From NCBI RefSeq assembly GCF_022846255.1, contig NZ_AP025682.1: a stretch of 64,000 bases of DNA; one strand, 5' to 3'. Positions 15,187 to 39,431 of this stretch are shown in pieces. The first letter of the stretch is position 1. Each line of letters begins with the position of its first letter. The notes under the pieces were generated by a model. It saw nothing but the letters and a program-made list of their open reading frames with translations, ran no database searches and was not told the origin of the DNA. Source of the stretch: Escherichia coli. Its GTDB lineage: Bacteria; Pseudomonadota; Gammaproteobacteria; Enterobacterales; Enterobacteriaceae. Both the position numbers and the translations under genes were made by a program.

Positions 15187-15744
15187 ATGACCCTACGCAA
15201 GATTCTGGCACTCACCTGCCTGCTGTTGCCGATGATGGCTTCCGCACATCAGTTCGAAACCGGTCAGCGAGTGCCGCCGATTGGCATCACCGATCGTGGC
15301 GAGTTGGTGCTTGATAAAGATCAGTTTAGCTACAAAACCTGGAACAGCGCGCAGTTAGTGGGAAAAGTGCGAGTACTGCAACATATTGCTGGTCGCACCT
15401 CTGCAAAAGAGAAAAACGCGACGCTGATTGAAGCGATTAAATCAGCGAAGTTACCGCACGATCGTTACCAGACCACCACCATTGTTAACACCGACGACGC
15501 GATTCCGGGTTCAGGGATGTTTGTGCGCAGCAGTCTGGAGAGTAATAAAAAGCTTTATCCCTGGTCGCAGTTTATTGTTGATAGCAATGGCGTCGCACGC
15601 GGTGCCTGGCAGCTGGATGAAAAAAGTTCCGCTGTAGTGGTGCTGGATAAAGACGGTCGCGTGCAATGGGCCAAAGACGGGGCACTTACTCAGGAAGAGG
15701 TGCAGCAAGTGATGGACCTGCTGCATAAATTAATTAATAAATAG
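15187..15744 (+). CDS. ytfJ: Periplasmic protein YtfJ (DUF1107/YtfJ_HI0045 family)
   Basis: 185-aa ORF with signal peptide ([20 protein letters not shown]); 3' end overlaps cysQ 3' end by 11 bp (convergent). Confidence 0.9.
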
Positions 15745-21952: not shown

Positions 21953-23365
21953 TTATTTCCGCAGTTCAGCAGCCCGCTTCTTACCAATAAACAGCCAGCC
22001 CAGCCCCAGCGCGATAAACCACAGCGGGGTAACCAGCAGCGCCTGGTGGGTGTCATCTTCCAGTGTCAACAACACCAGAACAAACACAAAGAACGCCATA
22101 CATACCCAGCACATCAGCTTGCCGAGTGGCATCTTGTAGATCGACTTCTCATGCAGATGAGGACGCTGTTTGCGATACACCAGGTACGAGCAAAGGATAA
22201 TCGTCCAGACAAACATAAACAGAATCGCGGAAACGGTTGTAATCATCGTGAACGCGCCAATCACGCTGGGATTCACATACAACATCACCACGCCGCCGAG
22301 CAGACAGATACAAGAGAAGGTCAGCCCTTTCGCGGGTACTGCGCGCTTAGAGAGTTTAGCGAACGCTTTCGGTGCCACACCTTCCTGGGCCAGGCCAAAC
22401 AGCATACGGCTGGTAGAGAAGACACCGCTGTTAGCGGAAGACGCCGCAGAGGTCAGCACCACAAAGTTGATCACGCTGGCAGCCGCAGGCAAACCTACCA
22501 ACACAAACAGTTCAACGAACGGGCTTTTCTCCGGGACTACCGAACTCCACGGCGTCACGGACATAATCACAATCAGCGAGAAGACGTAGAACATAATGAT
22601 ACGGATCGGAATGGAGTTAATCGCGCGTGGCAGTGATTTCTCCGGATCTTTGGTTTCCGCAGCTGTTGTACCTACCAGCTCAATCCCCACGAAAGCGAAA
22701 ACCGCTATCTGGAATCCGGCAAAGAAGCCGCTTAAGCCTTTCGGGAACCAGCCGCCGTCATTCCACAAATGTGTAAATGATGCTTCCACACCGGTCGGTG
22801 ACTGAAAGTGCATCGCCACCATGACCAGGCCGACAACAATCAGCGACACGATGGCGACGATTTTGATCATCGCAAACCAGAACTCCATCTCACCGAACAT
22901 TTTTACCGTGGCGAGGTTTAGAACCAGTAACAGAATGATCACGGATAACGAAGCAACCCAGTCAGAAAGCCCAGGGAACCAGAATTGCGCATAGGCGGTA
23001 ATGGCAACCACATCTGCCATACCGGTTACAACCCAGCAGAACCAGTAAGTCCAGCCGGTGAAATATCCTGCCCACGGCCCGAGTAAATCGGAAGCGAAGT
23101 CACTAAAAGATTTGTATTCCAGATTCGAAAGCAGCAATTCCCCCATTGCCCGCATCACGAAAAAGAGCATAAAACCGATGATCATATAAACGAAAATGAT
23201 CGACGGCCCGGCAAGGCTAATCGTTTTGCCGGACCCCATAAACAACCCTGTACCAATGGCACCGCCAATGGCAATAAGCTGAATATGTCGGTTTGTGAGA
23301 TTGCGCCGTAGCGACTGTTCAGCCGGAGCCTGATCATCGGCAACGACTTTTACCTGATCTACCAT
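21953..23365 (-). CDS. cycA: D-serine/D-alanine/glycine:H+ symporter CycA (APC family)
   Basis: 470-aa 12-TM amino-acid permease; matches CycA. Confidence 0.95.
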   Translation of the reverse strand: MVDQVKVVADDQAPAEQSLRRNLTNRHIQLIAIGGAIGTGLFMGSGKTISLAGPSIIFVYMIIGFMLFFVMRAMGELLLSNLEYKSFSDFASDLLGPWAGYFTGWTYWFCWVVTGMADVVAITAYAQFWFPGLSDWVASLSVIILLLVLNLATVKMFGEMEFWFAMIKIVAIVSLIVVGLVMVAMHFQSPTGVEASFTHLWNDGGWFPKGLSGFFAGFQIAVFAFVGIELVGTTAAETKDPEKSLPRAINSIPIRIIMFYVFSLIVIMSVTPWSSVVPEKSPFVELFVLVGLPAAASVINFVVLTSAASSANSGVFSTSRMLFGLAQEGVAPKAFAKLSKRAVPAKGLTFSCICLLGGVVMLYVNPSVIGAFTMITTVSAILFMFVWTIILCSYLVYRKQRPHLHEKSIYKMPLGKLMCWVCMAFFVFVLVLLTLEDDTHQALLVTPLWFIALGLGWLFIGKKRAAELRK

Positions 23366-23673
23366 GTTTTTTTCTTCCTGTACCTGTCTGTGTTGTTCAG
23401 GCTCTACGGCCTTTAGTCAGTCTATGATACGACGAATCTGTATCGGGACTCATCGATATTAGGTAACAATACGCGGGATGAATACTAAGATTTAGATCTA
23501 ATGTTAATTTTATGTTTAAAGTGAGTGTCATATCACGGTGATAACGCGAAACAGCTCACAAAAATACACGCTTACAGGGGCTTTGCAACATAAAATAGCG
23601 CCGTTTGGCAAACTGAAGGGTTTATTGCTGAATGCCTGCTCCCCTCTGGTTCGAGGGGAACAGAATGCGCTGC

Positions 23674-24294
23674 TTAGAGGATTTCCAGCAGTTCGACTTC
23701 AAACACCAGGGTGCTGAACGGAGGGATGGACGCGCCTGCGCCACGCTCGCCATATGCCAGTTCCTGCGGGATAGTCAGTTCCCATTTAGAACCTACCGGC
23801 ATCAGAGTCAGTGCTTCAATCCAGCCAGGGATCACGCCGTTAACCGGGAATTCAGCTGGCTCGCCGCGAGCAACGGAGCTGTCAAACACGGTGCCGTCGA
23901 TCAGTTTTCCGGTGTAATGAACACGAACGCGGTCGGTACGTGCCGGAATTGCGCCTTCGCCCTGGTTGATCACGCGGAATTGCAGGCCAGATTCGGTGCT
24001 ATTTACACCTTCTTTTTTGGCGTTTTCTTCCAGGTATTTCACACCTTCAGCAGCCATCGCCTGGAAACGCTGACGACGAACGGCATCGGCGCGTTCGTGG
24101 ATTTCACGCAGCGCGCGGTGCACCACATCAACCGGAACAGCCGGATGTTTGCCTTCCAGCGCATCGGCAATGCCTGCAACCAGAGCTTCTGGCAGCAGCC
24201 CTTCCAGGCCAGATTCACTCAGTTGTTGCCCTACCTGCAAACCAATGCCGTAGCTTGCTTGCGCTTCGATGGTGTCAAAAGTTGGGGTGGTCAT
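23674..24294 (-). CDS. fklB: FKBP-type peptidyl-prolyl cis-trans isomerase FklB
   Basis: 206-aa product from ATG at 24294 ([18 protein letters not shown]...) preceded by AGAAAGGAAA; FKBP domain at C-terminus. Confidence 0.93.
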
Positions 24295-24511
24295 CGTATT
24301 TCCTTTCTTAGGGTATAAAGTAGCGGGCAGCATATCAGCCACACTTCTTTGGGTAAAACTTTGTCGCGGGAATGATGACAAATCCCGGGGAAAAAGAAAC
24401 AATAGCAATATCCCGTATGAATATAATAAAGGCGGGTTTACCACGGACATCATAGCGTTAGCTTATTCATAGGCTATGATTGAGGAACAAGACGCGGAGC
24501 AGGAGGAAACC

Positions 24512-25150
24512 ATGCCCGGGCGCTTTGAACTAAAACCAACCCTGGAGAAAGTCTGGCACGCGCCGGACAATTTTCGCTTCATGGACCCGCTGCCGCCGAT
24601 GCATCGTCGGGGGATCATTATTGCCGCCATTGTATTGGTGGTCGGATTTCTGCTTCCATCTGATGATACGCCCAACGCGCCGGTGGTGACGCGTGAAGCG
24701 CAGTTAGATATTCAGTCGCAATCACAACCACCGACAGAAGAACAGCTGCGGGCGCAATTAGTCACGCCACAAAATGATCCTGATCAGGTGGCTCCGGTCG
24801 CTCCAGAACCAATACAGGAAGGCCAACCAGAAGAGCAGCCGCAAACCACCCATACGCAACCATTCCAGCCAGATAGCGGAATTGATAATCAATGGCGCTC
24901 CTATCGTGTCGAACCCGGTAAAACGATGGCGCAGCTGTTCCGCGACCACGGACTGCCCGCTACCGATGTCTATGCCATGGCGCAGGTAGAAGGCGCGGAT
25001 AAGCCACTGAGTAATTTGCAAAACGGGCAGATGGTGAAAATCCGCCAGAACGCCAGCGGCGTGGTGACGGGCTTAACCATTGATACGGGGAATAATCAAC
25101 AGGTCCTGTTTACCCGCCAGCCGGATGGCAGTTTTATTCGCGCGCGGTAG
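24512..25150 (+). CDS. ytfB: Cell-division-associated OapA-domain protein YtfB
   Basis: 212-aa product from ATG at 24512 ([23 protein letters not shown]...) preceded by AGGAGG; single TM, Pro/Gln-rich linker, C-terminal OapA region. Confidence 0.9.
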
Positions 25151-25781
25151 ATGAAGGGTCAACCAAAAGCCAGCTAAGGATCGTCTCTTTGATGACCTTA
25201 CGTCTGGCTTCCAGTGCCTGCGGTGAAACCATACTGATGTGATAAACCAGACCAAGCGTATGCTGGTTGATCAAATAATATCCCCCAAGCGCAGCAATAT
25301 TAATATTCACCTGCAATGGGTCGATATCTGGCTTAAAAATATTGTTTTTCTTCCCTTCATCCAATAAGGATTCCATTAACTGCAAGTGCGCATGGTTAAT
25401 TTCTAAAAGACGCTGTGACTTTGCATAATGCACACCCTTACTTTGATTTTCACTATGCACAATTTTTAAAAACCAGGGATTAGAAATATAATAATCCCAT
25501 GTAAAATCGATTATTTTCTCAATGGCTTTCTGTGGCGGAAGATCTGAGAAATCAAGGGCCTTTTCTTTTTGTCGAATATCGTTCCAGGTATATTCCAGTA
25601 CTTCGATAAATAAATTTTCTTTATTACCAAAGTGGTGATAAACCGTCTGTTTACTGCACCCCGCGGCCTTGACGATATTATCGACTCTGGCCCCTTCGTA
25701 ACCATATTCGGCAAATTCATTAACCGCGCATAACAGCAGCTTTTCTTTCAGGCTCTGTACGTTGCTGGTATCAAGATACAT
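25134..25781 (-). CDS. ytfA: TetR/AcrR-family transcriptional regulator (intact YtfA), divergent from the downstream operon
   Basis: 215-aa product from ATG at 25781 ([58 protein letters not shown]...) with TetR N-terminal HTH signature; 3' end overlaps ytfB 3' end. Confidence 0.85.
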
Positions 25782-25903
25782 AACGCTTCCCCACGACCTC
25801 TTCGTGGTGACTATCATAACCTGATTTGATTTCAGCTTCAGAAAAAAGGGCAAAAACTTGTACTTTCATCAGGTTATCAAATGTCCTGTGATCGCCATCG
25901 CAT

Positions 25904-25925
25904 ATCAACCAACTAGATGGTTGAT
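25904..25925. promoter_or_regulatory. Candidate TetR-type operator: 8-bp inverted repeat with 6-bp spacer (atcaacca-actaga-tggttgat) in ytfA/operon divergent intergenic region
   Basis: Perfect 8/8 inverted repeat located 69 bp upstream of the SDR gene start and within the ytfA upstream region. Confidence 0.5.
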
Positions 25926-25993
25926 CTTTTTATCCTCCAGTCGCAAGCTAATCATCACTAAGGAAACAAAATTCAAAAAAAGAGAGCTATTGT

Positions 25994-26785
25994 ATGAAAT
26001 CCACTCGTCCTGTTGCCGTGATTACCGGAGCCGCACGTGGTATTGGAAAGGGCTGTGCGCTGGAGCTTGCGCGTGGCGGATTTAATCTGCTGATTAATGA
26101 TCGTCCGGATGCGGATAGCGTAGAAAAATTACATGCCACACAACAAGAATGTCTGGCGGAAGGCGTGGAAGTGATTTGCTTCCCTGCTGATGTGGGCGAT
26201 CTCTCCCTGCATGAAGAGATGCTCGACGCAGCGCAAAACCAGTGGGGACGTCTGGACTGCCTGCTCAACAACGCAGGCATTTCAGTGAAAAAACGCGGTG
26301 ACCTTCTCGACCTCGAACCAGACAGCTTCGACCAAAATATTGCCATTAACACCCGCGCACCGTTCTTCCTTGCTCAGGCATTCAGTAAGCGCTTACTGGC
26401 ACAGCCGAAACCGGAAGCAGAACTGCCGCACCGCTCGATTATTTTCGTCAGTTCCATCAACGCCATCATGCTGGCGATGAATCGCGGCGAATATACCATT
26501 GCCAAAACTGCCGTCTCTGCCGCTGCTCGTCTGTTTGCTGCTCGCCTTTGTAATGAACAAATTGGCGTATATGAAGTGCGTCCTGGTCTCATCAAAACCG
26601 ATATGACTATTCCGGCAACGGCCTATTACGACGAACTGATTGCCAAAGGTCTGGTGCCGTGGGGACGTTGGGGTTATCCGGCTGATATTGCTTCCACTGT
26701 CCGCGCGATGGCGGAAGGTAAACTGATTTACACCTGTGGTCAGGCGGTCGCCATCGACGGCGGCTTAAGTATGCCGCGCTTCTGA
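25994..26785 (+). CDS. Short-chain dehydrogenase/reductase (SDR) family oxidoreductase
   Basis: 263-aa ORF with TGAARGIGKG cofactor-binding motif and YTIAK (YxxxK) catalytic motif. Confidence 0.85.
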   Translation: MKSTRPVAVITGAARGIGKGCALELARGGFNLLINDRPDADSVEKLHATQQECLAEGVEVICFPADVGDLSLHEEMLDAAQNQWGRLDCLLNNAGISVKKRGDLLDLEPDSFDQNIAINTRAPFFLAQAFSKRLLAQPKPEAELPHRSIIFVSSINAIMLAMNRGEYTIAKTAVSAAARLFAARLCNEQIGVYEVRPGLIKTDMTIPATAYYDELIAKGLVPWGRWGYPADIASTVRAMAEGKLIYTCGQAVAIDGGLSMPRF

Positions 26786-26794
26786 GGCTGAATC

Positions 26795-27637
26795 ATGAGA
26801 GATCTGTTACAACGCCCGGATTTATTCAGTATCAATACCGCGACACTGGGCTATAAAACGCCGCTGCCCGCCATTATTGATGCCTGCGCCGCACGCGGTA
26901 TTGGCGCCATTGCCCCCTGGCGCAGGGAGTTGCAGGGTGAAGATCTCCAGCAAATCGCCCGCCAGCTTGCTGCCAGTAACATAAACGTTTCCGGTTTGTG
27001 CCGTAGCACCTACTACACCGCACCGACGCTGGCGGAGCGCAAACTGGTGATTGACGATAACCGCCGGGCGCTGGACGACGCCGCTGTACTGAACGCCGCC
27101 TGTTATATGCAGGTGGTTGGCGGTCTGCCAATGGGAACAAAAGATCTGTACGAAGCACGGGAACAAGTGAAACAAGGGATTCGCCAGTTGCTGCCACATT
27201 CGAAAGAGGTCGGCGTGCCAATTGCACTGGAGCCACTGCACCCGATGACTGCTGCCGATCGTTCTTGTCTGTGCACGTTACGTCAGGCGCTGGACTGGTG
27301 TGATGAACTCGATCCCGATGGCGAATTTGGCCTCGGCGTGGCGGTAGATGTCTACCATGTCTGGTGGGACCCGGATCTCGCCAGTCAGATCCTGCGTGCC
27401 GGAAAACGCATCCTCGCGTTTCATGTTTCCGACTGGTTAGTGCCGACCACCGATCTGGTCAATGACCGTGGAATGCCGGGAGATGGTGTCATCAATATTC
27501 CGTCAATTCGTCGGCTGGTTGAAAACGCCGGATTTAATGGCGCTATTGAACTGGAAATATTCTCACCGTACTGGTGGCAGAAAGATATTAACAGCACGCT
27601 GGATATTAGCGTCGATCGCATCGCACATTATTGTTAA
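26795..27637 (+). CDS. Sugar phosphate isomerase/epimerase (xylose-isomerase-like TIM barrel) family protein
   Basis: 280-aa ORF starting 9 bp after SDR stop, GAGG RBS; family assignment by sequence resemblance to AP-endonuclease-2/TIM-barrel isomerases, moderate certainty. Confidence 0.75.
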   Translation: MRDLLQRPDLFSINTATLGYKTPLPAIIDACAARGIGAIAPWRRELQGEDLQQIARQLAASNINVSGLCRSTYYTAPTLAERKLVIDDNRRALDDAAVLNAACYMQVVGGLPMGTKDLYEAREQVKQGIRQLLPHSKEVGVPIALEPLHPMTAADRSCLCTLRQALDWCDELDPDGEFGLGVAVDVYHVWWDPDLASQILRAGKRILAFHVSDWLVPTTDLVNDRGMPGDGVINIPSIRRLVENAGFNGAIELEIFSPYWWQKDINSTLDISVDRIAHYC

Positions 27638-27646
27638 GGAATAATC

Positions 27647-28423
27647 ATGAGTGACCAACCCGTTCTGTTCAGCAGAGCGGCGGCTTCTTGCCGCCTGACA
27701 TTGAACCGTGAAGATAAATGTCATGCTATTAATGAAGAAATGATCGAATCTCTCGACCATTATTTAAATGAAATTGAAAATGACACGGCATTACGCTTAG
27801 TCGAATTAACGGCAACCGGCGATAAATTCTTTTGTGCGGGCGGCGATATTAAATCGTGGTCGGCCTATTCGCCATTAGATATGGGCAGAAAATGGATTAA
27901 ACGCGGTAATGACGTTTTTAATCGCCTGCGCAACTTACCCCAATTAACCGTTGCGAATCTCAACGGTCATACCATCGGTGGCGGTATTGAACTTGCCTTG
28001 TGCTGCGATATTCGTATCGCTCGCCCCGGCGCGAAATTCTCTAACCCGGAAGTGATGCTCGGCATGGTGCCAGGCTGGATGGGCATTGAGCGAGTGCTTA
28101 ATCAGGTTGGTCCTGTGGTCGGTCGCCAGATGCTGATGCTGGGTAAACGCCTGACGGCGCAGGAAGCTCAGACAGCGAATTTAATTGATGAAGTGGTAGA
28201 AAAAGAACAGGTGGAAAGCTGGATGGCGAACCAGTTAGCGCAGCTGGAAAAATGTGGTCCGGTGGCACTGGCACATATTAAGCAACTGATTCTGGCGCTG
28301 GAAAATAAACACGCCGATTACTCCCACCAGTTACTGGCTGGATTAATGTCCGCCACTCAGGATTGCCAACAGGCGACGCACGCATTTGCCGAAAAAGCCG
28401 GCGTGAGCTTCCACAATCAATAA
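27647..28423 (+). CDS. Enoyl-CoA hydratase/isomerase (crotonase-fold) family protein
   Basis: 258-aa ORF with crotonase motifs (FCAGGDIK; NGHTIGGGIELALCCDIRIA); AAGGA RBS. Confidence 0.85.
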   Translation: MSDQPVLFSRAAASCRLTLNREDKCHAINEEMIESLDHYLNEIENDTALRLVELTATGDKFFCAGGDIKSWSAYSPLDMGRKWIKRGNDVFNRLRNLPQLTVANLNGHTIGGGIELALCCDIRIARPGAKFSNPEVMLGMVPGWMGIERVLNQVGPVVGRQMLMLGKRLTAQEAQTANLIDEVVEKEQVESWMANQLAQLEKCGPVALAHIKQLILALENKHADYSHQLLAGLMSATQDCQQATHAFAEKAGVSFHNQ

Positions 28424-28432
28424 GGAAATTGT

Positions 28433-29974
28433 ATGCGTAAGTTATCAACCGCCGAGACACTGGCGGCGCAAATTCAGGACGGCGCAACCATTGCCATTAG
28501 CGGCAACGGCGGCGGTATGGTGGAAGCTGACCATATTCTGGCCGCCATTGAAGCGCGCTTTCTGCAAACCGGACACCCGCGCGATCTGACATTAATCCAC
28601 TCGCTGGGTATTGGCGATCGCGACAGCAAAGGCACTAACCGTTTTGCTCACGCCGAAATGCTCAAACGCATTATTGCCGGACATTTTACCTGGTCGCCCA
28701 AGATGCAGGAACTGGTGAAAAGCAATGCTATTGAAGCCTACTGTTTCCCTGGTGGCGTAATTCAGGCACTGCTGCGGGAGATCGGTGCCGGACGTCCGGG
28801 GCTTTTTACCCACGTTGGGCTGGGATCGTTTGTTGATCCACGCAATGGTGGCGGTAAGTCGAATGAATGCACTACCGACGACCTGGTAGAACTGATTGAA
28901 ATCGACGGTGAGACCAAACTTCGTTATCGCCCTTTCAAAGTGGACTACGCGATTTTGCGCGGCACCTATGCCGATCCGCGTGGCAACGTCAGCCTCGAAG
29001 AAGAGGCGATTGATATGGATAGCTATTCGATGGCGCTGGCAGCACACAACAGCGGCGGCAAAGTGTTCGTACAGGTCCGCGATGTGCTGGAAGCAGGTAC
29101 CATTGAACCACGTCGGGTCAAACTACCAGGAATTCTGGTCGATGGCATCGTTGAGCACCGCGAACAACCGCAAACCTATCTTGGTGGTTACGACCTGACG
29201 ATCAGCGGTCAACATCGCCGTCTAAGTTCTAACGACGCTATTGAACTGGTTAGTCATCCGGTGCGTCGCCTGATTGCCCGTCGGGCAGCGCGGGAACTGG
29301 TGGCAGGCGCTTCAACCAACTTTGGCTTTGGTATTCCCGGCGGTATTCCTGGGGTTGCACTGCGCGAAGGCGTGCCTTATCAAAGTTTGTGGCTGAGTGT
29401 AGAACAGGGTGTACATAACGGCATGATGCTGGATGATGCTCTGTTCGGCTGCGCCCGTAACGCCGATGCCATTATTCCATCACTCGATCAATTCGAATTC
29501 TACAGTGGCGGCGGTATCGATATCACCTTCCTCGGCATGGGAGAGATGGATCGGTACGGTAACGTCAACGTATCCCATCTCAATGGCAATCTCATTGGCC
29601 CCGGCGGCTTCCTCGAAATTGCGCAAAACGCCCGTAAAGTGGTGTTCTGCGGTACGTTTGACGCCAAAGGCAGCAAGATTGATGTAACGCCTGATGGCCT
29701 GCATATCGCCCAGTCAGGTCAAATCCCCAAACTGGTTACCCAGGTGGAAAAAATTACTTTTAGCGCCGCATACGCACAGCAAAGCAGTCAGGAAGTGCTG
29801 TATATCACCGAACGTGCGGTATTCCAGTTAACGGCAGAAGGCGTTGAATTAATTGAGATCGCCCCTGGCGTAGAGATTGACCGCGACATTCTGCCGTATA
29901 TGGCCTTCCGTCCGATTATCAGGCACCCACGCCTGATGGAAAGTAGCCTGTTTACGCCAATGGAGGATGCATGA
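28433..29974 (+). CDS. Family I CoA-transferase, fused alpha/beta type (YdiF-like acyl-CoA:acetate CoA-transferase)
   Basis: 513-aa ORF with glycine-rich N-terminus (ATIAISGNGGGMVEADHIL), resembles E. coli YdiF-type short-chain acyl-CoA transferases; AAGGA RBS. Confidence 0.8.
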   Translation: MRKLSTAETLAAQIQDGATIAISGNGGGMVEADHILAAIEARFLQTGHPRDLTLIHSLGIGDRDSKGTNRFAHAEMLKRIIAGHFTWSPKMQELVKSNAIEAYCFPGGVIQALLREIGAGRPGLFTHVGLGSFVDPRNGGGKSNECTTDDLVELIEIDGETKLRYRPFKVDYAILRGTYADPRGNVSLEEEAIDMDSYSMALAAHNSGGKVFVQVRDVLEAGTIEPRRVKLPGILVDGIVEHREQPQTYLGGYDLTISGQHRRLSSNDAIELVSHPVRRLIARRAARELVAGASTNFGFGIPGGIPGVALREGVPYQSLWLSVEQGVHNGMMLDDALFGCARNADAIIPSLDQFEFYSGGGIDITFLGMGEMDRYGNVNVSHLNGNLIGPGGFLEIAQNARKVVFCGTFDAKGSKIDVTPDGLHIAQSGQIPKLVTQVEKITFSAAYAQQSSQEVLYITERAVFQLTAEGVELIEIAPGVEIDRDILPYMAFRPIIRHPRLMESSLFTPMEDA

Positions 29975-32043
29975 GTCAGCTTGATGAGGCCATCCTTGAT
30001 GCACTGACACACGTTACTTTCCCAAAGGGTTTTGCACAGGCAGAACCCGCATGGGTTGTCACGGTAGACGGTGTTGATTACCCACTCTGGAAAACAGATG
30101 CCCTGGTAGTCGGCAGTGGTGCAGCCGGGCTACGTGCAGCTGTGGAACTTAAACGCCGCCAGCAAAATGTGTTAATCGCCACCGCCGGGTTATATATGGG
30201 GACATCGGCATGTTCTGGCTCTGATAAACAAACACTGTTTACCGCCGCTACCGCGGGCAACGGCGACAACTTCGCCAAACTGGCAGAGGCACTGGCGAGC
30301 GGTGGGGCGATGGATCACGACACCGCTTATGTTGAAGCGGTAGGTTCTCTGCACACTCTTGGCGGGTTGCAATATCTTGGTCTGGAATTACCGGAAGATC
30401 GCTATGGCGCGATTCTTCGTTATCAAACCGACCATGACGAAGCCGGGCGTGCAACCTCGTGTGGGCCGCGTACCTCAAGGTTAATGGTGAAAGTGCTGCT
30501 GGAAGAAGTACAGCGTCTTGCTATCCCAATGTTGGCCAGTGCAACAGTGATTAAACTGCTGCATCAGCGTGACGAAAACGGTGAAGACCGTGTGGCGGGG
30601 GCAATCCTCGCGACCGGTCATCGCGCCCATAACCCATGGGGGCTGGCAATTGTGACTGCGCCCAATGTGGTACTGGCAACAGGCGGGCCTGGCGAGCTTT
30701 ATCGCGACAGTGTGTATCCACACAAATGTTTCGGCTCGCTGGGGCTGGCGCTGGAGGAAGGTCTGACGTTAACGAATCTGACTGAAAGCCAGTTTGGTAT
30801 AGGCACACCGCGCAGCACGTTTCCGTGGAATTTGTCCGGCACCTATGTACAGGTGATCCCATATATCTATTCCGTGGATGCCGGGGGCAACGAGTATAAC
30901 TTCCTCGCGGATTACTATCGCACCACCCAGGAGCTGGCTTCAAACATTTTCCGTAAAGGCTATCAGTGGCCGTTCCACGCCACGCGGGTAATGGATTTTG
31001 GCTCCAGCTTGTTAGATATGGCAGTAGCGCAAGAGCAGCAACATGGTCGTCAGGTATTTATGGATTTCAATCGTAATCCAGAACCTGTGCCGGGTGACCT
31101 ACCGTTCTCATTAGATCGACTGGACGACGACGTTCGCGCGTATCTGGAAAATAACGACGCTCTGGCACCATCGCCCATCGAACGCCTGCAACAAATGAAT
31201 CCTCTGTCTATCTCGCTGTATAAGATGCACGGTTACGATCTCATCACGCAGCCATTGCAGTTTGCCATGAATAATCAGCACATGAATGGCGGCATTGAAG
31301 TCGATATCTGGGGACAAACATCTCTGCCCGGTTGTTTTGCGGTGGGGGAAGTTGCTGGCACACACGGCGTCACCCGACCTGGCGGCGCGGCGTTGAATGC
31401 CGGGCAGGTTTTTGCTGTTCGTCTGGCGCGCTTTATTGGTTGCACGCAAAAGCGGAATATTGATGGAGATATTGCACAGCTGGCAGCTCCGGCACTGGCT
31501 TCTATAAGAGAGATCATTACTCAGGCGCACGATAACGGGTCCGGGATGCCGTTGTCGGTTGTGAGAGAAAAAATTCAGGCACGAATGTCTGACTATGCGG
31601 GATTTATTTGCCATGCCGATAAAGTCCGACGTGCCACTCGTGATGCCCTGCTATTGAACGAATTTGTCCAACGACATGGATTGGCAATCAAACATGTGGG
31701 TGAAGTTGCCGAGCTGTTTATGTGGCGGCATATGGCGCTGACTTCTGCCGCGGTATTAACACAATTAACGCATTATATTGATGCTGGTGGTGGTAGCCGT
31801 GGGGCGCGTATGGTTATTGATCCACAAGGCAAATGCCTACCACAAACTCGTCGCGGCGCAAAAGAAGAATGGCGTTTTCGCTCTGAACTCGCTGAAGACA
31901 AAAATCACAAATTAACAATTCAATATTCGCAAGGTTCTTTTATTACCGAAGTAAAGTCTTTACGTATGCAACCGTGTATTAACGGTATTTACTTTGAAAA
32001 AAACTGGCCAGACTTTTTAAAGGGAGACATTTACACACAATAA
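29971..32043 (+). CDS. FAD-dependent oxidoreductase, fumarate reductase/succinate dehydrogenase/L-aspartate oxidase flavoprotein superfamily, with long C-terminal extension
   Basis: 690-aa ORF; dinucleotide-binding motif (DALVVGSGAAGLRAAVEL) and C-terminal FAD-binding signature (CFAVGEVAGTHGVTRPGGAALNAGQVF); start ATG overlaps upstream stop (ATGA); GGAGG RBS. Confidence 0.8.
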   Translation: MSQLDEAILDALTHVTFPKGFAQAEPAWVVTVDGVDYPLWKTDALVVGSGAAGLRAAVELKRRQQNVLIATAGLYMGTSACSGSDKQTLFTAATAGNGDNFAKLAEALASGGAMDHDTAYVEAVGSLHTLGGLQYLGLELPEDRYGAILRYQTDHDEAGRATSCGPRTSRLMVKVLLEEVQRLAIPMLASATVIKLLHQRDENGEDRVAGAILATGHRAHNPWGLAIVTAPNVVLATGGPGELYRDSVYPHKCFGSLGLALEEGLTLTNLTESQFGIGTPRSTFPWNLSGTYVQVIPYIYSVDAGGNEYNFLADYYRTTQELASNIFRKGYQWPFHATRVMDFGSSLLDMAVAQEQQHGRQVFMDFNRNPEPVPGDLPFSLDRLDDDVRAYLENNDALAPSPIERLQQMNPLSISLYKMHGYDLITQPLQFAMNNQHMNGGIEVDIWGQTSLPGCFAVGEVAGTHGVTRPGGAALNAGQVFAVRLARFIGCTQKRNIDGDIAQLAAPALASIREIITQAHDNGSGMPLSVVREKIQARMSDYAGFICHADKVRRATRDALLLNEFVQRHGLAIKHVGEVAELFMWRHMALTSAAVLTQLTHYIDAGGGSRGARMVIDPQGKCLPQTRRGAKEEWRFRSELAEDKNHKLTIQYSQGSFITEVKSLRMQPCINGIYFEKNWPDFLKGDIYTQ

Positions 32044-32135
32044 TTTTCAATATTTCCTCTGTACCTGATTTTTATTGCCTATTACATGGAAATACCAACA
32101 ACCAGGGTTTATTAATATAATTAAAAGGTTTAAAA

Positions 32136-33413
32136 ATGAATAAAATAAAGAATTATCGATGGCATATGATTGCCCTCGTATGCTTTATCACTGTAATCAA
32201 TTATCTGGACAGAACGGCGTTAGGTATTGCGGCTCCAACGATTATGGAGACAACCGGAATAACCAAAGAACAATATTCATGGATTGTCAGTGCATTCCAG
32301 TTGGCCTATACATTGGGGCAACCGATAATGGGCTTCTTTATTGATACCGTGGGTCTGAAGTTAAGTTTTGCGATATGTGCCGCAATCTGGGGCCTGGCGA
32401 CAATGGGGCATGCCTTGACAGGAACATGGTCAGGTCTGGCATTTATGCGCGCCCTGATGGGTTTCAGCGAAGCATCGGCAATTCCTGCGGGTGTAAAAAC
32501 CGCATCAACATGGTTCCCGGCAAAAGAGCGTGGCGTGGCGACAGGTGTATTCAATATGGGTACCTCACTCGGCGCGATGCTTGCTCCACCGTTGATTGCC
32601 TGGTGCATTATGTTTCATAGCTGGCAATTTGCGTTTATTGTCTCAGGTAGCCTTGCTTTACTCGCGGCTTTATTTTGGTTCTTTTGTTATAAAGATCCAA
32701 AAGATGCTAAACGCCTTTCTGATGAAGAGCGCCACTATATTGAGTCTGGGCAAGAACAGCATCTTAAAACAGATAAGAAAGAAAAAACGTCAATCAAGCA
32801 TATCCTCAGCCAACGTAATTTCTGGGGGATTGGCATCGCGCGTTTTCTCGCTGACCCGGCATGGGGAACCATTAACTTCTGGGTACCGATTTTCTTCGTC
32901 GAAACGCTGCATTTTAGCCTGAAAGAAATTGCCATGTTCGTCTGGCTGCCTTTCCTGCTGGGCGATCTCGGCTGTTTAGCCAGTGGTTTTGTCGCGAAGT
33001 TCTTCCACGATCGCGGCGTGAGTTTAATTAACTCACGAAGAATTACCTTCACTATTGCAGCCGTCATTATGATGACGATTGGTCTGGTGAGTATTGTCGA
33101 AAATCCCTACATCGCCGTATTACTGATTAGCATTGGCGCATTCTCGCATCAATGTCTTTCTACTGTTGCAGCAACTCTGGGCGGTGACCTATTCAAAAAA
33201 GACGAAGTAGCTACCGCTGTGGGTATGGCAGGAGCCTGTGCATGGAGCGGTCAGTTGATTTTCAACCTGTTTATCGGGGCATTCGTTCACATTATTGGCT
33301 TCGCGCCGTTCTTTATTGCCCTGGCTTTCTTTGACATTATTGGCGCCATTGCGCTGTGGATGCTTATCAAAGTTAAAGACGAAGAACCACAAGTACAGTT
33401 AGCGACAAGCTAA
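32136..33413 (+). CDS. MFS transporter, anion:cation symporter (ACS) family (hexuronate/aldonate-type)
   Basis: 425-aa 12-TM ORF with MFS signature (YLDRTALGIAAP; GxLxDRxG-like loop), resembles ExuT/DgoT-type organic anion permeases. Confidence 0.85.
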   Translation: MNKIKNYRWHMIALVCFITVINYLDRTALGIAAPTIMETTGITKEQYSWIVSAFQLAYTLGQPIMGFFIDTVGLKLSFAICAAIWGLATMGHALTGTWSGLAFMRALMGFSEASAIPAGVKTASTWFPAKERGVATGVFNMGTSLGAMLAPPLIAWCIMFHSWQFAFIVSGSLALLAALFWFFCYKDPKDAKRLSDEERHYIESGQEQHLKTDKKEKTSIKHILSQRNFWGIGIARFLADPAWGTINFWVPIFFVETLHFSLKEIAMFVWLPFLLGDLGCLASGFVAKFFHDRGVSLINSRRITFTIAAVIMMTIGLVSIVENPYIAVLLISIGAFSHQCLSTVAATLGGDLFKKDEVATAVGMAGACAWSGQLIFNLFIGAFVHIIGFAPFFIALAFFDIIGAIALWMLIKVKDEEPQVQLATS

Positions 33414-33422
33414 TTATTTTAC

Positions 33423-33464
33423 ATAGAAACGCTATAATTTAGCTTTGTAGCGTTTCTATTTTTC
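33423..33464 (+). terminator. Rho-independent terminator after MFS transporter gene (possibly bidirectional)
   Basis: Perfect 11-bp stem atagaaacgct ... agcgtttctat followed by tttttct. Confidence 0.6.
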
Positions 33465-33555
33465 TCATAAATTAAACGTCTCTTCCAAAACGTTCAGTAT
33501 CTACTGGCATTGCTTCGCAAATTTATGATTTAGCGAATATATCTAAATAACTATT

Positions 33556-34824
33556 CTAAATTGCCCCCCTGAACGCCTCTGCCATTAACTCTTGCTCACG
33601 ACCAGGTAATCGAAGACGCTCGGCAATGATTCGCCACTGACTGACAATCCCTCTAAAATTAGCAATAATGTCATCTGCTTCTGTCAAACCAAGTCGAAAA
33701 TAATCCACAACTTCTCGAGCTAATTCCAAATCAAGTGCATTATCATTTTCTGTAATATTGAGTTTTAGACCGTCAGACCTGGCAACAGGATTCAAATCAT
33801 ATGCCTCAGAAAGCCGCCAACCTTTTCCCGGTATCAAGATATATCCATGATTACGTAAATGGTCATCGGTATTAGAAACAAGAATATTAAAAACAATCCT
33901 GGACCAGAGTTCCTTAAGGTCAGTATTAGTCTGCGCTCCATGTCTGATAAGAACATCTGCTAATTCCAGATAACTCACACCTGTAGAGGCATCTTCACCA
34001 TCCTGATGCCTGGTTAGTGTCATAGCCGAAGCAAAATGCAGACGCCTTCCCGCATTAGTGCGGTCAAAACGACGAACCATAAAACAATGGTAATTGCTGG
34101 CAAATTTATGCGCCTGAGCAGGTGCAACATTCAGTCCACAGCCAACAGCAAGTGCATTAACGACCATTTCCCATCCACCAACATCATACTCATCTTTTAC
34201 ACTGGGAAATTTAGCGATGTAGAGATACCCAGCTTCATCAACAACACTGGCTTTCGGACGTGTCCCCCCTAATGATCCCCCCGGAGCGATTAGCATTCTT
34301 AACCATTTTTGCCCCATTAGCTCTTTATTATCAGGATCTTCTTCAATTGCCCGGCTAGCCCTTTCCAGACTCGCTATTTCGGTAAATGGTGGGGCTGCAA
34401 CATCAATGCGATTATCAAGAAACTCTCCAGCGTCTTCACGTTTGTATCGAAGAGCCCCAACCCGATAAAGATCATGAACACCTAGTAGATAATCAGACTC
34501 ATAAAGGTGGGAGTCTTTATCACATAACCCGTCTCGAATATCCCTCTCAAAACGACGCTTCATTAGCATACGCCCCCAACGATCCGGGCAGGAATCACTA
34601 AATGCACCAAATTTATCCTTTGGAGGAATTGGGTACTGTGCTCCCTCATACAACATTATTTCAGGATCTAACTGAATGAAATTAAGTGAAGGATCTGCAA
34701 GCGCCTTTTTATCGTACTCAAACTCAAATATCTCACGCGTCCGAGTGCGGCGACTGTGTAAATAACCAATCCGCTCCGGACCATCCAGGCCTTCCCAATC
34801 CGCATACACTCCGATTAATGCCAT
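33556..34824 (-). CDS. HipA-family serine/threonine kinase (type II toxin-antitoxin toxin candidate)
   Basis: 422-aa ORF; HipA N-terminal motif (FSDSCPDRWGRMLMKRR resembles HipA FDNLLPDSPIVRDRIVKRY), glycine-rich loop (IAPGGSLGGTRPKASVV), catalytic motif (LVSNTDDHLRNHGYIL); AAGGAAA RBS; starts 2 nt after upstream HTH gene stop. Confidence 0.85.
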   Translation of the reverse strand: MALIGVYADWEGLDGPERIGYLHSRRTRTREIFEFEYDKKALADPSLNFIQLDPEIMLYEGAQYPIPPKDKFGAFSDSCPDRWGRMLMKRRFERDIRDGLCDKDSHLYESDYLLGVHDLYRVGALRYKREDAGEFLDNRIDVAAPPFTEIASLERASRAIEEDPDNKELMGQKWLRMLIAPGGSLGGTRPKASVVDEAGYLYIAKFPSVKDEYDVGGWEMVVNALAVGCGLNVAPAQAHKFASNYHCFMVRRFDRTNAGRRLHFASAMTLTRHQDGEDASTGVSYLELADVLIRHGAQTNTDLKELWSRIVFNILVSNTDDHLRNHGYILIPGKGWRLSEAYDLNPVARSDGLKLNITENDNALDLELAREVVDYFRLGLTEADDIIANFRGIVSQWRIIAERLRLPGREQELMAEAFRGAI

Positions 34825-34826
34825 AA

Positions 34827-35318
34827 TTAATTTCCTTTTAACGGTTTTTTTATCGGTTTTAATAGTGCTGCAAGAGAGGTTGATGTTTCTCCTGTAATAG
34901 ATGGCGTTGAGCCTTCTGCCAGTGCTGTTAAATCCGTGGTGAGTAAACCTTCTTTCTCATACCTCGTTTGAAAAGGGTCTGTCTGAATACCTTCTTCATT
35001 TTTACCTGATGAACGAGAAAGCCCTCTTTTTTTAATCAAACGGGAATCCTGGAGCTGACGCCCTAAGTCGTCTTCAGCTGCAAGCTTATTTAAATCCGTT
35101 TCCAGGCCCAAAACCTGCATCACAGACAAATATGCCCCTATCGTGACCCCTGCACTTCCTGACTCCAGAGAGCGCAATGTTATTGGCGACATCCCAGCAC
35201 GTTCAGCAACTTGCTTTGCGGTAAGCCTGCGTCGTAAACGAGCAAGTTTCAGCCGCTCACCAAATTCACTAAGCATCTGATTCGTATAAGGGAGTAACGG
35301 TGCTGTTTTTTTACCCAT
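34827..35318 (-). CDS. XRE-family HTH protein, HipB-like antitoxin candidate with ~90-aa Ser/Thr-rich C-terminal extension
   Basis: 163-aa ORF; HTH_XRE region ([32 protein letters not shown]); immediately upstream of and co-oriented with the HipA-like gene; no clear SD at the first ATG, alternative start at Met15 (35276) possible. Confidence 0.75.
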
Positions 35319-35338
35319 AGTGATAATATTTTATCTTT

Positions 35339-35359
35339 TTATGGCTATGATAGCCATAA
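35339..35359. promoter_or_regulatory. Candidate operator: perfect 10-1-10 palindrome ttatggctat-g-atagccataa upstream of HipB-like gene
   Basis: Perfect inverted repeat 21-41 bp upstream of the HTH gene start codon in an AT-rich promoter region. Confidence 0.55.
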
Positions 35360-35664
35360 TATTAGCATTTATTGGATTGAACGCACCTGCAAAGCGTTCA
35401 AGATTACGAAAGTGATGATATTTTATCCTTTTATATATAAAAACAATAAAATAACAGCGCATTCATATATAACATATTGTTTTTATTATCATACAAGGGA
35501 GACGATCGCTGTATTGATGCTTTTGTCGTGTTTTACGCGTAAAAAACATGACACGAACTACCAGCGGCGAGGCTGGGGGCCAGGTATGGGTACTGCGAAC
35601 TTTTTATAAAAGGAATAACAAGAGATTTATGGAGGGAACGTCTGTTTCTGCGGTTTTTATCACT

Positions 35665-35697
35665 TAAAAGCAAAACGCCGACCACTGGTCGGCGTTT
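35665..35697 (-). terminator. Rho-independent terminator of rpsF-priB-rpsR-rplI operon
   Basis: Stem aacgccgacca/tggtcggcgtt followed on the minus strand by ttttgctttt, 23 bp downstream of rplI stop. Confidence 0.75.
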
Positions 35698-35719
35698 TTA
35701 CGTCTCGTTGAATAACGAA

Positions 35720-36181
<462 letters not shown>

Positions 36182-36210
36182 TCAAAGTCGTATTAATGGA
36201 CCGTGACCGA

Positions 36211-36757
<547 letters not shown>

Positions 36758-36763
36758 CAGAAA

Positions 36764-37177
<414 letters not shown>

Positions 37178-37486
37178 TTATTCAGCCTCCTGTCTGGGTC
37201 AGCCGAATCCCGGGGAGGCAAGGAACGTGTTAAAGGTCGGCTGAAAAATGACGCGTTATAGTACTGACATACCCCGCTAAACTCAAGGCCAGCCGACAAA
37301 TAAATCTCATCCTTCACCAAATCGTACTAACACGCTGATTTGAAGTTCATCACACTTCATCATGGTGTTTTTTTGAACAACTGCATCAGAAATGGTCACC
37401 ATCCACTTCTTTATCATTGATTAAAATTAAATCAGAAGATCACCACAAGAGGAGAGCACACAAAGTCAGCCGTCGAGGAGGTATCT

Positions 37487-37762
37487 ATGTTCAGCCGTGT
37501 TTTAGCCCTTCTGGCTGTGCTTTTGCTAAGTGCAAATACATGGGCAGCCATTGAAATTAATAACCACCAGGCCAGAAATATGGACGATGTGCAAAGCTTA
37601 GGCGTGATTTATATCAATCATAATTTCGCCACTGAAAGCGAAGCGCGTCAGGCATTAAATGAAGAGACAGATGCGCAGGGCGCAACGTACTACCACGTGA
37701 TTCTGATGCGGGAACCGGGGAGTAACGGCAATATGCACGCCAGCGCGGATATTTATCGCTAG
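37487..37762 (+). CDS. yjfY: DUF1471-family periplasmic small protein YjfY (YdgH/BhsA/McbA-like)
   Basis: 91-aa ORF with signal peptide (MFSRVLALLAVLLLSANTWA). Confidence 0.85.
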   Translation: MFSRVLALLAVLLLSANTWAAIEINNHQARNMDDVQSLGVIYINHNFATESEARQALNEETDAQGATYYHVILMREPGSNGNMHASADIYR

Positions 37763-37890
37763 CACCAGGTATAACCAACGAAACATTGCCATAGTTTGCT
37801 TTGCCCCCTTTTCAGGGGGCTTTTTTTGAAAAACGGCTGCGGACTTAGACCAGTTATCTCCCGAAGAAGGAAATCTCCGCAGCGCGTGTT

Positions 37891-38577
37891 TTACTTCTGC
37901 CCGTAATAGGCGTTGGGACCGTGCTTACGCATGAAGTGTTTATTCATGAGATAGCTGTCGATGTGATTCAGTTGCGGGTTAATGCCGCGGGCAATCCACG
38001 CCATTTTCGCCACTTCTTCCATCACCACCGCGTTATGCACCGCATCGTGAGCATCTTTCCCCCAGGCGAATGGCCCGTGCTGATACACCACAATTCCCGG
38101 CGTATGCAGCGGCTCGGCGTCACCCAGCGTTTCGATAATCACTTTGCCAGTGTTTAGCTCGTATTCCCCCTGCACTTCTTCTTCGCTTAACCCGCGCGTA
38201 CAGGGGATATCGCCAAAGAAGTAGTCAGCGTGCGTGGTGCCTAATGCCGGGATAGCCAGCCCCGCCTGCGCCCATGCGGTGGCATGCGTGGAATGGGTAT
38301 GGACAATGCCGCCAAGCGACGGATAACGGCGGTAGAGTTCAAGATGCGTCGCGGTGTCGGAAGACGGACGATACTCCCCTTCCACCACCTTGCCGCTCAT
38401 ATCAACCACCACCATATCGTCTGCTTTCATGGTTTCGTAGGCAACGCCGCTGGGCTTGATCACCACCAGCCCGCGTTCGCGGTCAATGGCGCTGACGTTG
38501 CCCCAGGTAAAGGTCACCAGCCCGTAGCGCGGCAGATCCATATTGGCTTCAAATACCTGCTGTTTTAGCTTTTGCAT
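37891..38577 (-). CDS. ulaF: L-ribulose-5-phosphate 4-epimerase UlaF
   Basis: 228-aa product from ATG at 38577 ([34 protein letters not shown]...), class II aldolase/adducin fold. Confidence 0.94.
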
Positions 38578-39431
38578 TATGCCGCCTCCACCATGCCGGC
38601 TTTGGCCATGCGCGCTTTCACCCAATCACGCGCTTTCGCCACTTCTGCCGCCGGGTCTTCCGCCGTTTCGCTCCACATCTCAATCAGGTACGGCCCGCAA
38701 TAACCACTCTGTTTGAGCGTTTCGAAGCAACGTTCGAAATCCACTACACCTTCGCCAAACGGGACGTTTTTGAAGACGCCTGGTTTGGTGTCTTTCACAT
38801 GCACCGCGACGATATGCCCGATCCCGGCCTGCAACTCCATCTGCACGTCGTTGTCCCACGCCGACAAGTTGCCGATATCCGGGTAGAGCTGGAACCACGG
38901 GTTGTTAAGATAGTGCGCGTAACCCAGCGCCTTGCTGATGGAGTTCATCAACGGGTAATCCATGATCTCCATCGCCAGCGTCACCTGCGCGCGGCTTGCC
39001 ATCTCAACGCTCTCTTTCAGGCCGTCACGGAAACGACGACGCGTTTCGTTATTGGCTTCCTGATAGTAAACGTCGTAGCCCGCCAGTTGGATCACGCGAA
39101 TACCGACATCCTGGGCGAACTGGATAGCTTTGCGCATAATCTCCAGCCCCTGCGCCCGCACTGCGTCATCTTCGCTGCCCAGCGGGAAACGACGATGAGC
39201 AGAAAGGCACATGGACGGTACGCGCACGCCGGTTTCAACAATCGCGTTCACCAGTGCCAGACGCTGCTCGCAGCTCCAGTCGAGGCGCGAAAGGCGATCG
39301 TCCGTTTCATCTACTGACATCTCGACAAAATCGAAGCCTAACGTTTTTGCCAGTTGCAGTCGTTCCAGCCAGCACTCCCCAGCGGGGAGCGCTTTTTCGT
39401 AGATGCCAAGCGGGATTTGTTTGGACAACAT
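38577..39431 (-). CDS. ulaE: L-ribulose-5-phosphate 3-epimerase UlaE
   Basis: 284-aa ORF matching UlaE; stop overlaps ulaF start by 1 nt. Confidence 0.95.

Follow-up and report, generated by a model that had tools for sequence, protein, structure and literature searches.

Very probably, a TetR-controlled catabolic operon has long resided in the interval between ytfB and rplI on the Escherichia coli chromosome, was lost from K-12 by deletion, and later gained a hipBA-like gene pair as a neighbor. This reading comes from a 64,000-nt stretch of E. coli DNA (RefSeq assembly GCF_022846255.1, contig NZ_AP025682.1; here, "the window"), in which a map of open reading frames (ORFs) at 22000-39000 was compared with the RefSeq annotation of E. 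coli AF16, a 99.3% identical genome. Both give the same genes in the same order, as had a first-pass annotation of the window: fklB/bamJ, ytfB, and a TetR gene on the left; a divergent six-gene operon encoding a short-chain dehydrogenase/reductase (SDR), a TIM-barrel protein, an enoyl-coenzyme A (CoA) hydratase, a CoA-transferase, a flavin adenine dinucleotide (FAD) flavoprotein, and a major facilitator superfamily (MFS) transporter; a HipA-like kinase gene and a helix-turn-helix (HTH) gene, convergent with the operon; and rplI-rpsR-priB-rpsF on the right. The first-pass annotation had taken the genes between the flanks for an insertion into a K-12-like ancestor. Operon relics in K-12 and synteny in other species point instead to an ancestral block deleted in K-12-like strains, an outcome that the first-pass annotation had itself named as refuting its reading.

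Remnants of the operon in K-12 and its distribution among species

A megablast search of window positions 24000-37500 against 5426 complete E. coli genomes, with one example of each structural state used to place breakpoints, found the core operon (TetR plus six genes) in 3114 genomes (57%) and a K-12-type junction in 2227 (41%). The flanks of the block, previously described as nearly adjacent in K-12, lie ~1.1 kb apart there and enclose yjfZ (L002 2808-3602), a gene not found in the window. K-12 ytfA is a 5′-truncated pseudogene, annotated as "missing N-terminus," whose match to the window ends at 25536, inside the TetR gene. It is followed by 102 bp (L002 2542-2643) collinear with SDR codons at 26083-26184 of the window (~79 to 80% identity; blastn E value of 2e-21). 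Two in-frame stops interrupt this relic, and its differences fall about equally on the three codon positions (8/5/8), the mark of a decayed pseudogene. Beyond it lies a yjfZ module identical to the one downstream of an intact MFS gene in another structural variant (L005). Together, the truncated TetR gene, the SDR relic, and the yjfZ module indicate that K-12 carries a yjfZ-type operon locus after two deletions. A single old event, a double deletion that took out the promoter, the 5′ end of the TetR gene, and almost the whole operon, would account for the scar of K-12 and O157 strains. All 2227 genomes share the scar junction, and scar haplotypes differ among themselves by up to 8%. Over the 3′ part of the window gene, the TetR remnant of K-12 shows 96.6% identity, and it matches the E. 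coli B allele. The block had been drawn from 25782 to 35700; the segment that differs from K-12 begins inside the TetR gene and stops short of the rplI terminator (Table 1).

In O157-type genomes (O157:H7 EC4115, L006 2286-3933) and many other scar genomes, IS609 (tnpA plus tnpB/insQ) sits in the TetR remnant at a point equivalent to window position 25241.

To place the operon outside E. coli, one genome per species was scanned with the CoA-transferase as the query, followed by tblastn mapping, a search that reaches close relatives only. The full order (TetR, SDR, TIM-barrel protein, hydratase, CoA-transferase, flavoprotein, MFS transporter) was mapped between ytfB and rplI in six non-E. coli or cryptic genomes. 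Within Escherichia these are E. albertii, E. whittamii (with an empty slot downstream of the operon), a cryptic-clade genome labeled "E. coli" (with a tripartite ATP-independent periplasmic [TRAP] transporter), and Escherichia sp. MOD1-EC7003; outside it they are Klebsiella spallanzanii and Entomohabitans teleogrylli. Nucleotide identity to the window is similar for flanks and operon in E. albertii (91 to 93% and 86 to 94%, respectively) and E. whittamii (91 to 95% and 85 to 95%), and both values fall in Entomohabitans (80 to 82% and 69 to 78%) and K. spallanzanii (68 to 95% and 71 to 82%). Operon divergence that follows the flanks in this way fits vertical descent with many losses, and horizontal replacement occurs as well.

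These comparisons bear directly on the converse history, in which the ancestor looked like K-12 and the ~9.5-kb block was inserted later as a patchwork of separate acquisitions. The block is indeed missing from 41% of E. coli genomes, K-12 included, GC content does vary among its genes, and the hipBA pair and the TRAP/MFS transporter cassettes truly are separate pieces. A patchwork insertion is nevertheless hard to reconcile with the truncated TetR gene and collinear SDR relic kept by K-12, with synteny and flank-like divergence in other species and genera, with a GC pattern conserved across genera, and with a conserved candidate operator that places ytfA within the unit. We consider it highly improbable. 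The idea of a composite of acquired pieces survives for the hipBA pair and the transporter cassette and fails for the ~8-kb core of TetR, five enzymes, and MFS transporter.

Several observations weigh against an ancestral operon lost by deletion. First, the SDR relic is ~15 to 21% diverged from every intact allele aligned, next to a TetR remnant that is 96.6% identical to the window. A single recent simple deletion does not, on these alignments, account for that difference; either a very old scar has had the TetR end refreshed by recombination in the flank, or the relic has another origin. (A deep second allele, described next, was tried as the source of the relic and gave no match.) Second, most species representatives of the Enterobacteriaceae gave no match to the CoA-transferase query in a search that finds close relatives only, and such a patchy distribution means that ancestry requires many independent losses. 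Third, divergence within E. coli is mosaic: compared with a TRAP-type allele, the window is 98.8% identical in tetR and 88.4% in the 3′ half of the FAD gene, and E. coli GF4-3 (L086 3206-13419) and Escherichia sp. MOD1-EC7003 carry a deep second allele of 74 to 85% nucleotide identity between flanks of ~95 to 99%. Judging from these alignments, import of alleles between lineages clearly also happens at this site. Fourth, no paper or fitness data set names a substrate for the operon, and the locus tags of strain NRG857c retrieve no paper. Finally, the hipA-2 genes, as the kinase gene is called in the literature, are pseudogenes in CFT073 according to one report (PMC7232551).

The same patchiness, the deep allele between well-conserved flanks, and the mosaic divergence would be expected had a mobile operon entered the same site independently in Escherichia, K. 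spallanzanii, and Entomohabitans, with foreign alleles continuing to replace resident ones; related clusters do occur in Alpha- and Betaproteobacteria. We regard such repeated transfer as quite unlikely, given that the operon and its flanks diverge in proportion in four outgroups, that GC content at third codon positions (GC3) has come into line with the host in Klebsiella, and that neither mobility genes nor repeats are present. Illegitimate insertion at an identical site in three genera would also be an improbable coincidence. Thus, we favor an old resident operon, deleted in K-12-type strains, whose alleles are sometimes exchanged.

Structural variants, base composition, and the hipBA-like pair

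Besides the scar, E. coli genomes differ in the transporter and in what lies downstream of it. A TRAP cassette was found in 1446 genomes (27%) and MFS-type states together in 1655 (31%); hipBA was present in 1040 (19%), the MFS/hipA junction in 1041 (19%), and yjfZ in 2524 (46.5%). On the right, homology resumes in all variants at 35666/35667, just before the rplI terminator hairpin. In the TRAP variant it is lost after 32034, within the last codons of the FAD gene, and TRAP QMP genes stand in place of the MFS gene; MFS and TRAP are alternative, exchangeable transporter cassettes. In the history we favor, the MFS cassette would have been exchanged for TRAP. The empty-slot variant of E. coli B and the yjfZ variant diverge from the window just past the MFS terminator (~33440-33459), and both retain a homologous hairpin. 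The slot between the MFS and rplI terminators (33460-35666 of the window) may therefore be empty, hold yjfZ, or hold hipBA as in the window, where a horizontally acquired two-gene cassette would have filled it. hipBA is chromosomal and single copy in all carriers and, rare alleles such as that of GF4-3 aside, lies at one junction with the MFS-type operon, which indicates a single insertion event. Since slot variants share exact boundaries at the two terminators, homologous recombination through the conserved flanks fits their spread and no integrase is needed. If variants pass between strains in this way, an integrase, a tRNA, or repeats would not be expected.

In line with the first-pass annotation, no such marks were found at the junctions. 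IS609 in the O157 type aside, the annotations of the locus variants show no integrase or recombinase gene in the ytfB-rplI interval, and no tRNA gene was found at 15000-45000 of the window. The hipBA piece has no terminal repeats and is surrounded by short chance repeats only. The locus thus shows none of the classical signs of a genomic island (an integrase; a tRNA with direct repeats; block-wide atypical composition together with absence from relatives); the five enzyme genes are typical in GC content and codon usage, and the block is syntenic in six other species.

Recombination at the locus may be quite fine in scale. The promoter region of E. coli B (L003 2779-2990) is only 84.9% identical to window positions 25782-25993, as distant as that of E. 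albertii, between neighboring genes at 95 to 97%, which suggests further mosaicism. In the deep allele of GF4-3 the crotonase gene is missing, and a MaoC dehydratase gene lies between the MFS gene and hipBA. A MaoC gene is also present in MOD1-EC7003, on a contig that begins too late to show its crotonase status, and Entomohabitans has both crotonase and MaoC genes. From gene content (L086, L011, and L010, the last at 15197-15676), the hydratase step of the GF4-3 allele looks like a nonhomologous replacement of crotonase by MaoC. In both GF4-3 and MOD1-EC7003, the stretch from hipBA to rplI is still 96% identical to the window.

We asked how far base composition sets these pieces apart, using the 38 other long ORFs of the window as background (GC, 0.532 ± 0.023; GC3, 0.581 ± 0.056; GC of the window as a whole, 0.514). 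The hipA gene (GC, 0.445, z = -3.8; GC3, 0.336, z = -4.4; codon-bias z = +3.5) and the HTH gene (GC, 0.445, z = -3.8; GC3, 0.341, z = -4.3; codon-bias z = +3.7) are clearly atypical, as is the TetR gene (GC, 0.412, z = -5.2; GC3, 0.452, z = -2.3; codon-bias z = +2.2), and no others are. The MFS gene is mildly low (GC, 0.465, z = -2.9; GC3, 0.481, z = -1.8; codon-bias z = +0.3), and the hydratase gene is normal (GC, 0.493, z = -1.7; GC3, 0.514, z = -1.2; codon-bias z = +0.5). The mosaic seen by eye in the first pass was therefore real for the hipA and HTH genes, for the intergenic spacers (GC, 0.26 to 0.36), and in moderation for the MFS gene, but not for the hydratase gene; the SDR, TIM-barrel, CoA-transferase, and FAD genes were rightly described as not AT rich and lie within the normal range. 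The lowest-GC gene of the locus is ytfA/TetR, which had been counted as a conserved core flank and turns out to be a member of the block and a pseudogene in K-12. The dips at the TetR, MFS, and hydratase genes recur in E. whittamii, K. spallanzanii, and Entomohabitans; in K. spallanzanii the enzyme genes rise to a GC3 of 0.63 to 0.71 while TetR and MFS stay low. Because they recur across genera, these dips must be old and intrinsic to the operon rather than a sign of recent assembly.

Could gene-specific constraints alone (the amino acids of membrane proteins, low expression of regulators, and AT-rich spacers) produce the whole pattern? They would suit the MFS gene, whose GC at first codon positions is low (0.488) and whose codon bias is nonetheless normal, and the dips that other genera share. 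The hipA and HTH genes are left unexplained, because a GC3 of 0.34 and a codon-bias z of +3.5 are silent-site signals, and because the pair is sporadic in distribution, with 72 to 81% identical homologs in distant genera. We find constraint as the sole cause somewhat unlikely. The low GC3, the scattered homologs, and the occurrence of the same unit in unrelated contexts of seven genera instead identify the hipBA-like pair as a separately acquired, compositionally foreign, later addition.

The kinase matches Pfam HipA_C (PF07804; E value of 5e-45, residues 184 to 397) and contains the motifs GGSLGGTRPK, DDHLRN, and YDLNP. The pair thus has the features of a type II HipA module, namely, a kinase domain with a Gly-rich loop, D-x-H-x-x-N, and a Mg-binding Asp, and an adjacent, co-oriented HTH gene. 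Aligned to K-12 HipA, the kinase is 27% identical over 132 amino acids (E value of 1e-5), and the catalytic loop aligns. A search of the PDB returned HipT as the best match (E value of 2.5e-8) and did not recover K-12 HipA at an E value of ≤1e-3; the Couple_hipA model scored an E value of 0.25 and the YjjJ model 37 bits against a cutoff of 401. The close relation to K-12 HipA, including N-subdomain-1, that marks the classical GltX-targeting clade was not found. The HTH protein matches HTH_31 (E value of 7e-11), and its Enterobacter counterpart is 65% identical. Two direct copies of a 24-nt repeat (35319-35342 and 35411-35434) that are 92% identical lie upstream of the HTH start, as does a 21-bp palindrome, TTATGGCTAT-C-ATAGCCATAA, at 35339-35359; both elements are likely candidates for hipBA operators. 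The HTH protein would act through the repeats at 35319-35434 to shut down its own promoter and would also neutralize the kinase. Kinase left free would, like other HipA-family kinases, phosphorylate a translation factor and so halt growth.

Homologs of the kinase at 72 to 81% identity are scattered over Gamma- and Betaproteobacteria: they occur in Enterobacter, Salmonella, Yersinia, Serratia, Pseudomonas, Stenotrophomonas, and Burkholderia and on Azotobacter and Pantoea plasmids. The HTH-kinase unit is kept together in Enterobacter, Yersinia, Salmonella, Pluralibacter, Serratia, Alcaligenes, and Burkholderia, and its neighbors differ from genus to genus; the settings include regions like integrative and conjugative elements, P4-satellite or defense regions, and plasmids. 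An 81% identical pair in Enterobacter (L087-L090 4265-5269) lies directly downstream of an accessory TrpS paralog of 334 amino acids, in a defense/P4-satellite island (SymE, HNH/Mrr, HsdR, Psu, Ogr/Delta). TrpS may, as a lead only, be the target of the kinase; the adjacency was seen in Enterobacter and not in the six other genera. PADLOC gave weak HTH matches and no defense-system assignment, and a phage collection held no close HipA-2 homolog. In some genomes hipA is split or truncated (H37; the 389-amino-acid cluster P0002).

Features of the locus and a candidate pathway

Gene positions and the basis of each assignment are listed in Table 1. The five enzyme genes are separated by 9-nt gaps or a 4-nt overlap, the latter between the CoA-transferase stop and the FAD-protein start, and the MFS gene follows after a spacer of 92 bp. 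The HTH gene lies 2 nt upstream of the kinase gene. The FAD-protein gene, intact in the window, is interrupted by an internal stop in AF16, the closest sequenced genome (L001 6972-9044), where the annotation calls it a pseudogene. An Rfam scan gave a single match, an RpsF leader (RF02893, 110 bits) at 37157-37241 on the minus strand, the autoregulatory element expected upstream of rpsF.

Table 1. Coordinates of features in and around the ytfB-rplI interval of the window
Feature	Position	Strand	Basis
TetR/AcrR regulator, full-length form of K-12 pseudogene ytfA	25134-25781	-	RefSeq, NCBIfam
Segment replaced in K-12-type genomes by 1,082 bp	25537-35666 (10,130 bp)		blastn breakpoints
Divergent promoter region, 212-bp tetR/SDR spacer	25782-25993		Conserved palindrome
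SDR	25994-26785	+	RefSeq annotation, NCBIfam, PDB match
Xylose-isomerase-like TIM-barrel protein ("sugar phosphate isomerase/epimerase family")	26795-27637	+	Annotation, PDB match
Crotonase-type enoyl-CoA hydratase/isomerase	27647-28423	+	NCBIfam
Fused family I acyl-CoA:acetate/3-ketoacid CoA-transferase, YdiF/FadX type	28433-29974	+	PDB, NCBIfam
690-amino-acid soluble FAD flavoprotein, fumarate reductase/succinate dehydrogenase/aspartate oxidase superfamily	29971-32043	+	Pfam
MFS transporter (exchangeable cassette, 32035-~33459)	32136-33413	+	TIGR00893, breakpoints
Intrinsic terminator after MFS gene, left edge of variable slot	33423-33459	+	15-pair stem plus T-run
HipA-superfamily Ser/Thr kinase (published name hipA-2)	33556-34824	-	Pfam HipA_C, motifs
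163-amino-acid HTH (XRE-type) putative antitoxin/repressor (published name xre-3)	34827-35318	-	Pfam HTH_31
Candidate hipBA promoter/operators	35319-35434		Repeat search
Conserved tail downstream of rplI, terminator hairpin at 35672-35698	35667-35719	-	Alignment, hairpin search
rplI	35720-36169	-	RefSeq annotation

The SDR scores 420 bits against NCBIfam NF009386 (PRK12745-type "3-ketoacyl-ACP reductase"; cutoff, 250) and matches PDB 4da9 at an E value of 1e-56. The nearest structures to the TIM-barrel protein are 3qc0 and 3ju2 (SMc04130; E value of 7e-85), both without an assigned function; a further neighbor, 7vpf, also has none, and paper searches on SMc04130 and 7vpf found nothing relevant. 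The hydratase matches NCBIfam enoyl-CoA hydratase families at E values of 1e-44, every one below its curated cutoff. The CoA-transferase aligns to YdiF (PDB 2ahu; E value of 5e-114) over residues 8 to 508, with both pcaI-like and pcaJ-like halves of a fused alpha/beta enzyme detected. Its score against FadX (E value of 1e-113, 381 bits) is below the equivalog cutoff of 750, so it is not FadX itself. The flavoprotein matches FAD_binding_2 (E value of 1e-24) and, distantly, NadB and FrdA, with the H...GG and HG..R segments conserved. The operon contains no FrdB-like iron-sulfur or anchor gene, and the Frd, Sdh, and NadB models score far below their cutoffs; a membrane-bound Frd/Sdh complex is thus not indicated. 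The transporter is related to the organic-anion (D-galactonate) transporter subfamily (TIGR00893; E value of 1.5e-93, below the cutoff).

The divergent regulator matches TetR-family NCBIfam models and accompanies the operon in all other genera that hold it. Between the two, at 25904-25925, lies a 22-bp palindrome, ATCAACCAACTAGATGGTTGAT, which is better conserved than any other part of the spacer when E. coli is compared with K. spallanzanii and which has an exact match in Entomohabitans. It is probably the TetR operator, and a conserved candidate operator argues that TetR/ytfA is part of the operon unit and not of the core flank. Full-length TetR would bind the palindrome and repress the six genes until a ligand arrives. 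An organic anion would then be imported by the MFS transporter, or by the TRAP transporter in other strains; the YdiF-type CoA-transferase would convert it to a CoA thioester; the hydratase, the SDR dehydrogenase, and the TIM-barrel isomerase/epimerase would handle the thioester in a beta-oxidation-like way; and the fumarate-reductase-like flavoprotein would act at a C=C/C-C bond. Both the chemistry and the regulation are suggested by family assignments and gene order. Related TIM-SDR-CoA-transferase-TetR clusters are common in Pseudomonas, Paraburkholderia, and Caballeronia, and in a Pseudomonas putida example an acyl-CoA dehydrogenase stands where the operon has its FrdA-like protein. The acyl-CoA deoxyribonate pathway of Klebsiella michiganensis was considered and rejected, as its gene set differs (CoA-synthetase, thiolase, and glycerate kinase).

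A broader joint reading, which we put forward as speculation and think rather unlikely to hold in full, combines an uncharacterized CoA-dependent pathway, a polymorphism older than E. coli, and a distinct HipA family. The compound that the soluble flavoprotein reduces or oxidizes may be an acyl-CoA or an enoate that stems from an organic acid of the gut; MFS and TRAP transporters may serve the operon as alternative routes of uptake, and crotonase and MaoC may be interchangeable hydratases. With a relic ~20% decayed, the presence/absence polymorphism may predate E. coli and be kept by niche-dependent selection. HipA-2 may represent a distinct family, with TrpS suggested as its target by the neighboring paralog in Enterobacter, and it might help guard the locus against deletion.

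Comparison with known loci

Overall, this is a known variable locus, real but largely ordinary, and its operon is uncharacterized yet ordinary looking. A deletion in K-12 looked like an insertion elsewhere because K-12 served as the reference, and the same bias let a pseudogene remnant, ytfA, pass for a core gene. The results refine the annotation of the locus and leave current concepts unchanged. They give a six-gene operon found in 57% of complete E. coli genomes a regulator and a candidate operator that can be named and tested, and they make the hipA-2 pair of B2, adherent-invasive E. coli (AIEC), and uropathogenic strains a single-origin addition fixed beside an MFS-type operon. They also bear on yjfZ (DUF2686), which has been proposed as a "conserved signature" quantitative PCR marker for E. 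coli/Shigella (PMC11057252): proposed for universal use, it is only one alternative slot filler, absent from the window, and is present in 2524 of the 5426 complete genomes, so that about half lack it.

The locus has already been described as hipA-2/xre-3 (TA28) of AIEC strain NRG857c, beside a "fatty-acid cluster" (Bustamante & Vidal 2020, PMC7232551). It is the same locus, with a module 99.8% identical in LF82. That paper reports, from quantitative reverse transcription-PCR, that hipA-2 is induced by bile salts and in macrophages; it treats the locus as an item in a toxin-antitoxin inventory and annotates the antitoxin at 98 amino acids compared with 163 in the window, and its available part is silent on the K-12 scar, on synteny across genera, on the exchange of TRAP and MFS transporters, and on yjfZ as an alternative (PMC7232551). 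The ytfA′-yjfZ region of K-12 shares its flanks, ytfB and the rplI terminator, with the window and differs in that the TetR 5′ end, the promoter, and the operon are gone, with the relic and yjfZ in their place.

In design, the operon is similar to the caiTABCDE carnitine pathway and, likewise, to the ydiF-ydiO cluster: all pair a transporter and a CoA-transferase with an enoyl-CoA hydratase and a flavoprotein that works on enoyl- or acyl-CoA. The CoA-transferase of the operon is a homolog of YdiF itself. Unlike in those operons, the flavoprotein is of the FrdA/NadB superfamily (FAD_binding_2) rather than an acyl-CoA dehydrogenase, the regulator is of the TetR family, and there are two additional enzymes, an SDR and a xylose-isomerase-like TIM barrel. 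The hipBA-like pair, for its part, can be set beside the classical HipBA of K-12, in which the HipA kinase phosphorylates GltX and the HipB antitoxin has 88 amino acids. Both consist of an HTH gene tightly coupled upstream of a HipA_C kinase gene, and the catalytic-loop and Mg-binding motifs align, whereas the putative antitoxin of the window is twice as long as HipB and ends in an unrelated Ser/Thr/Lys-rich tail.

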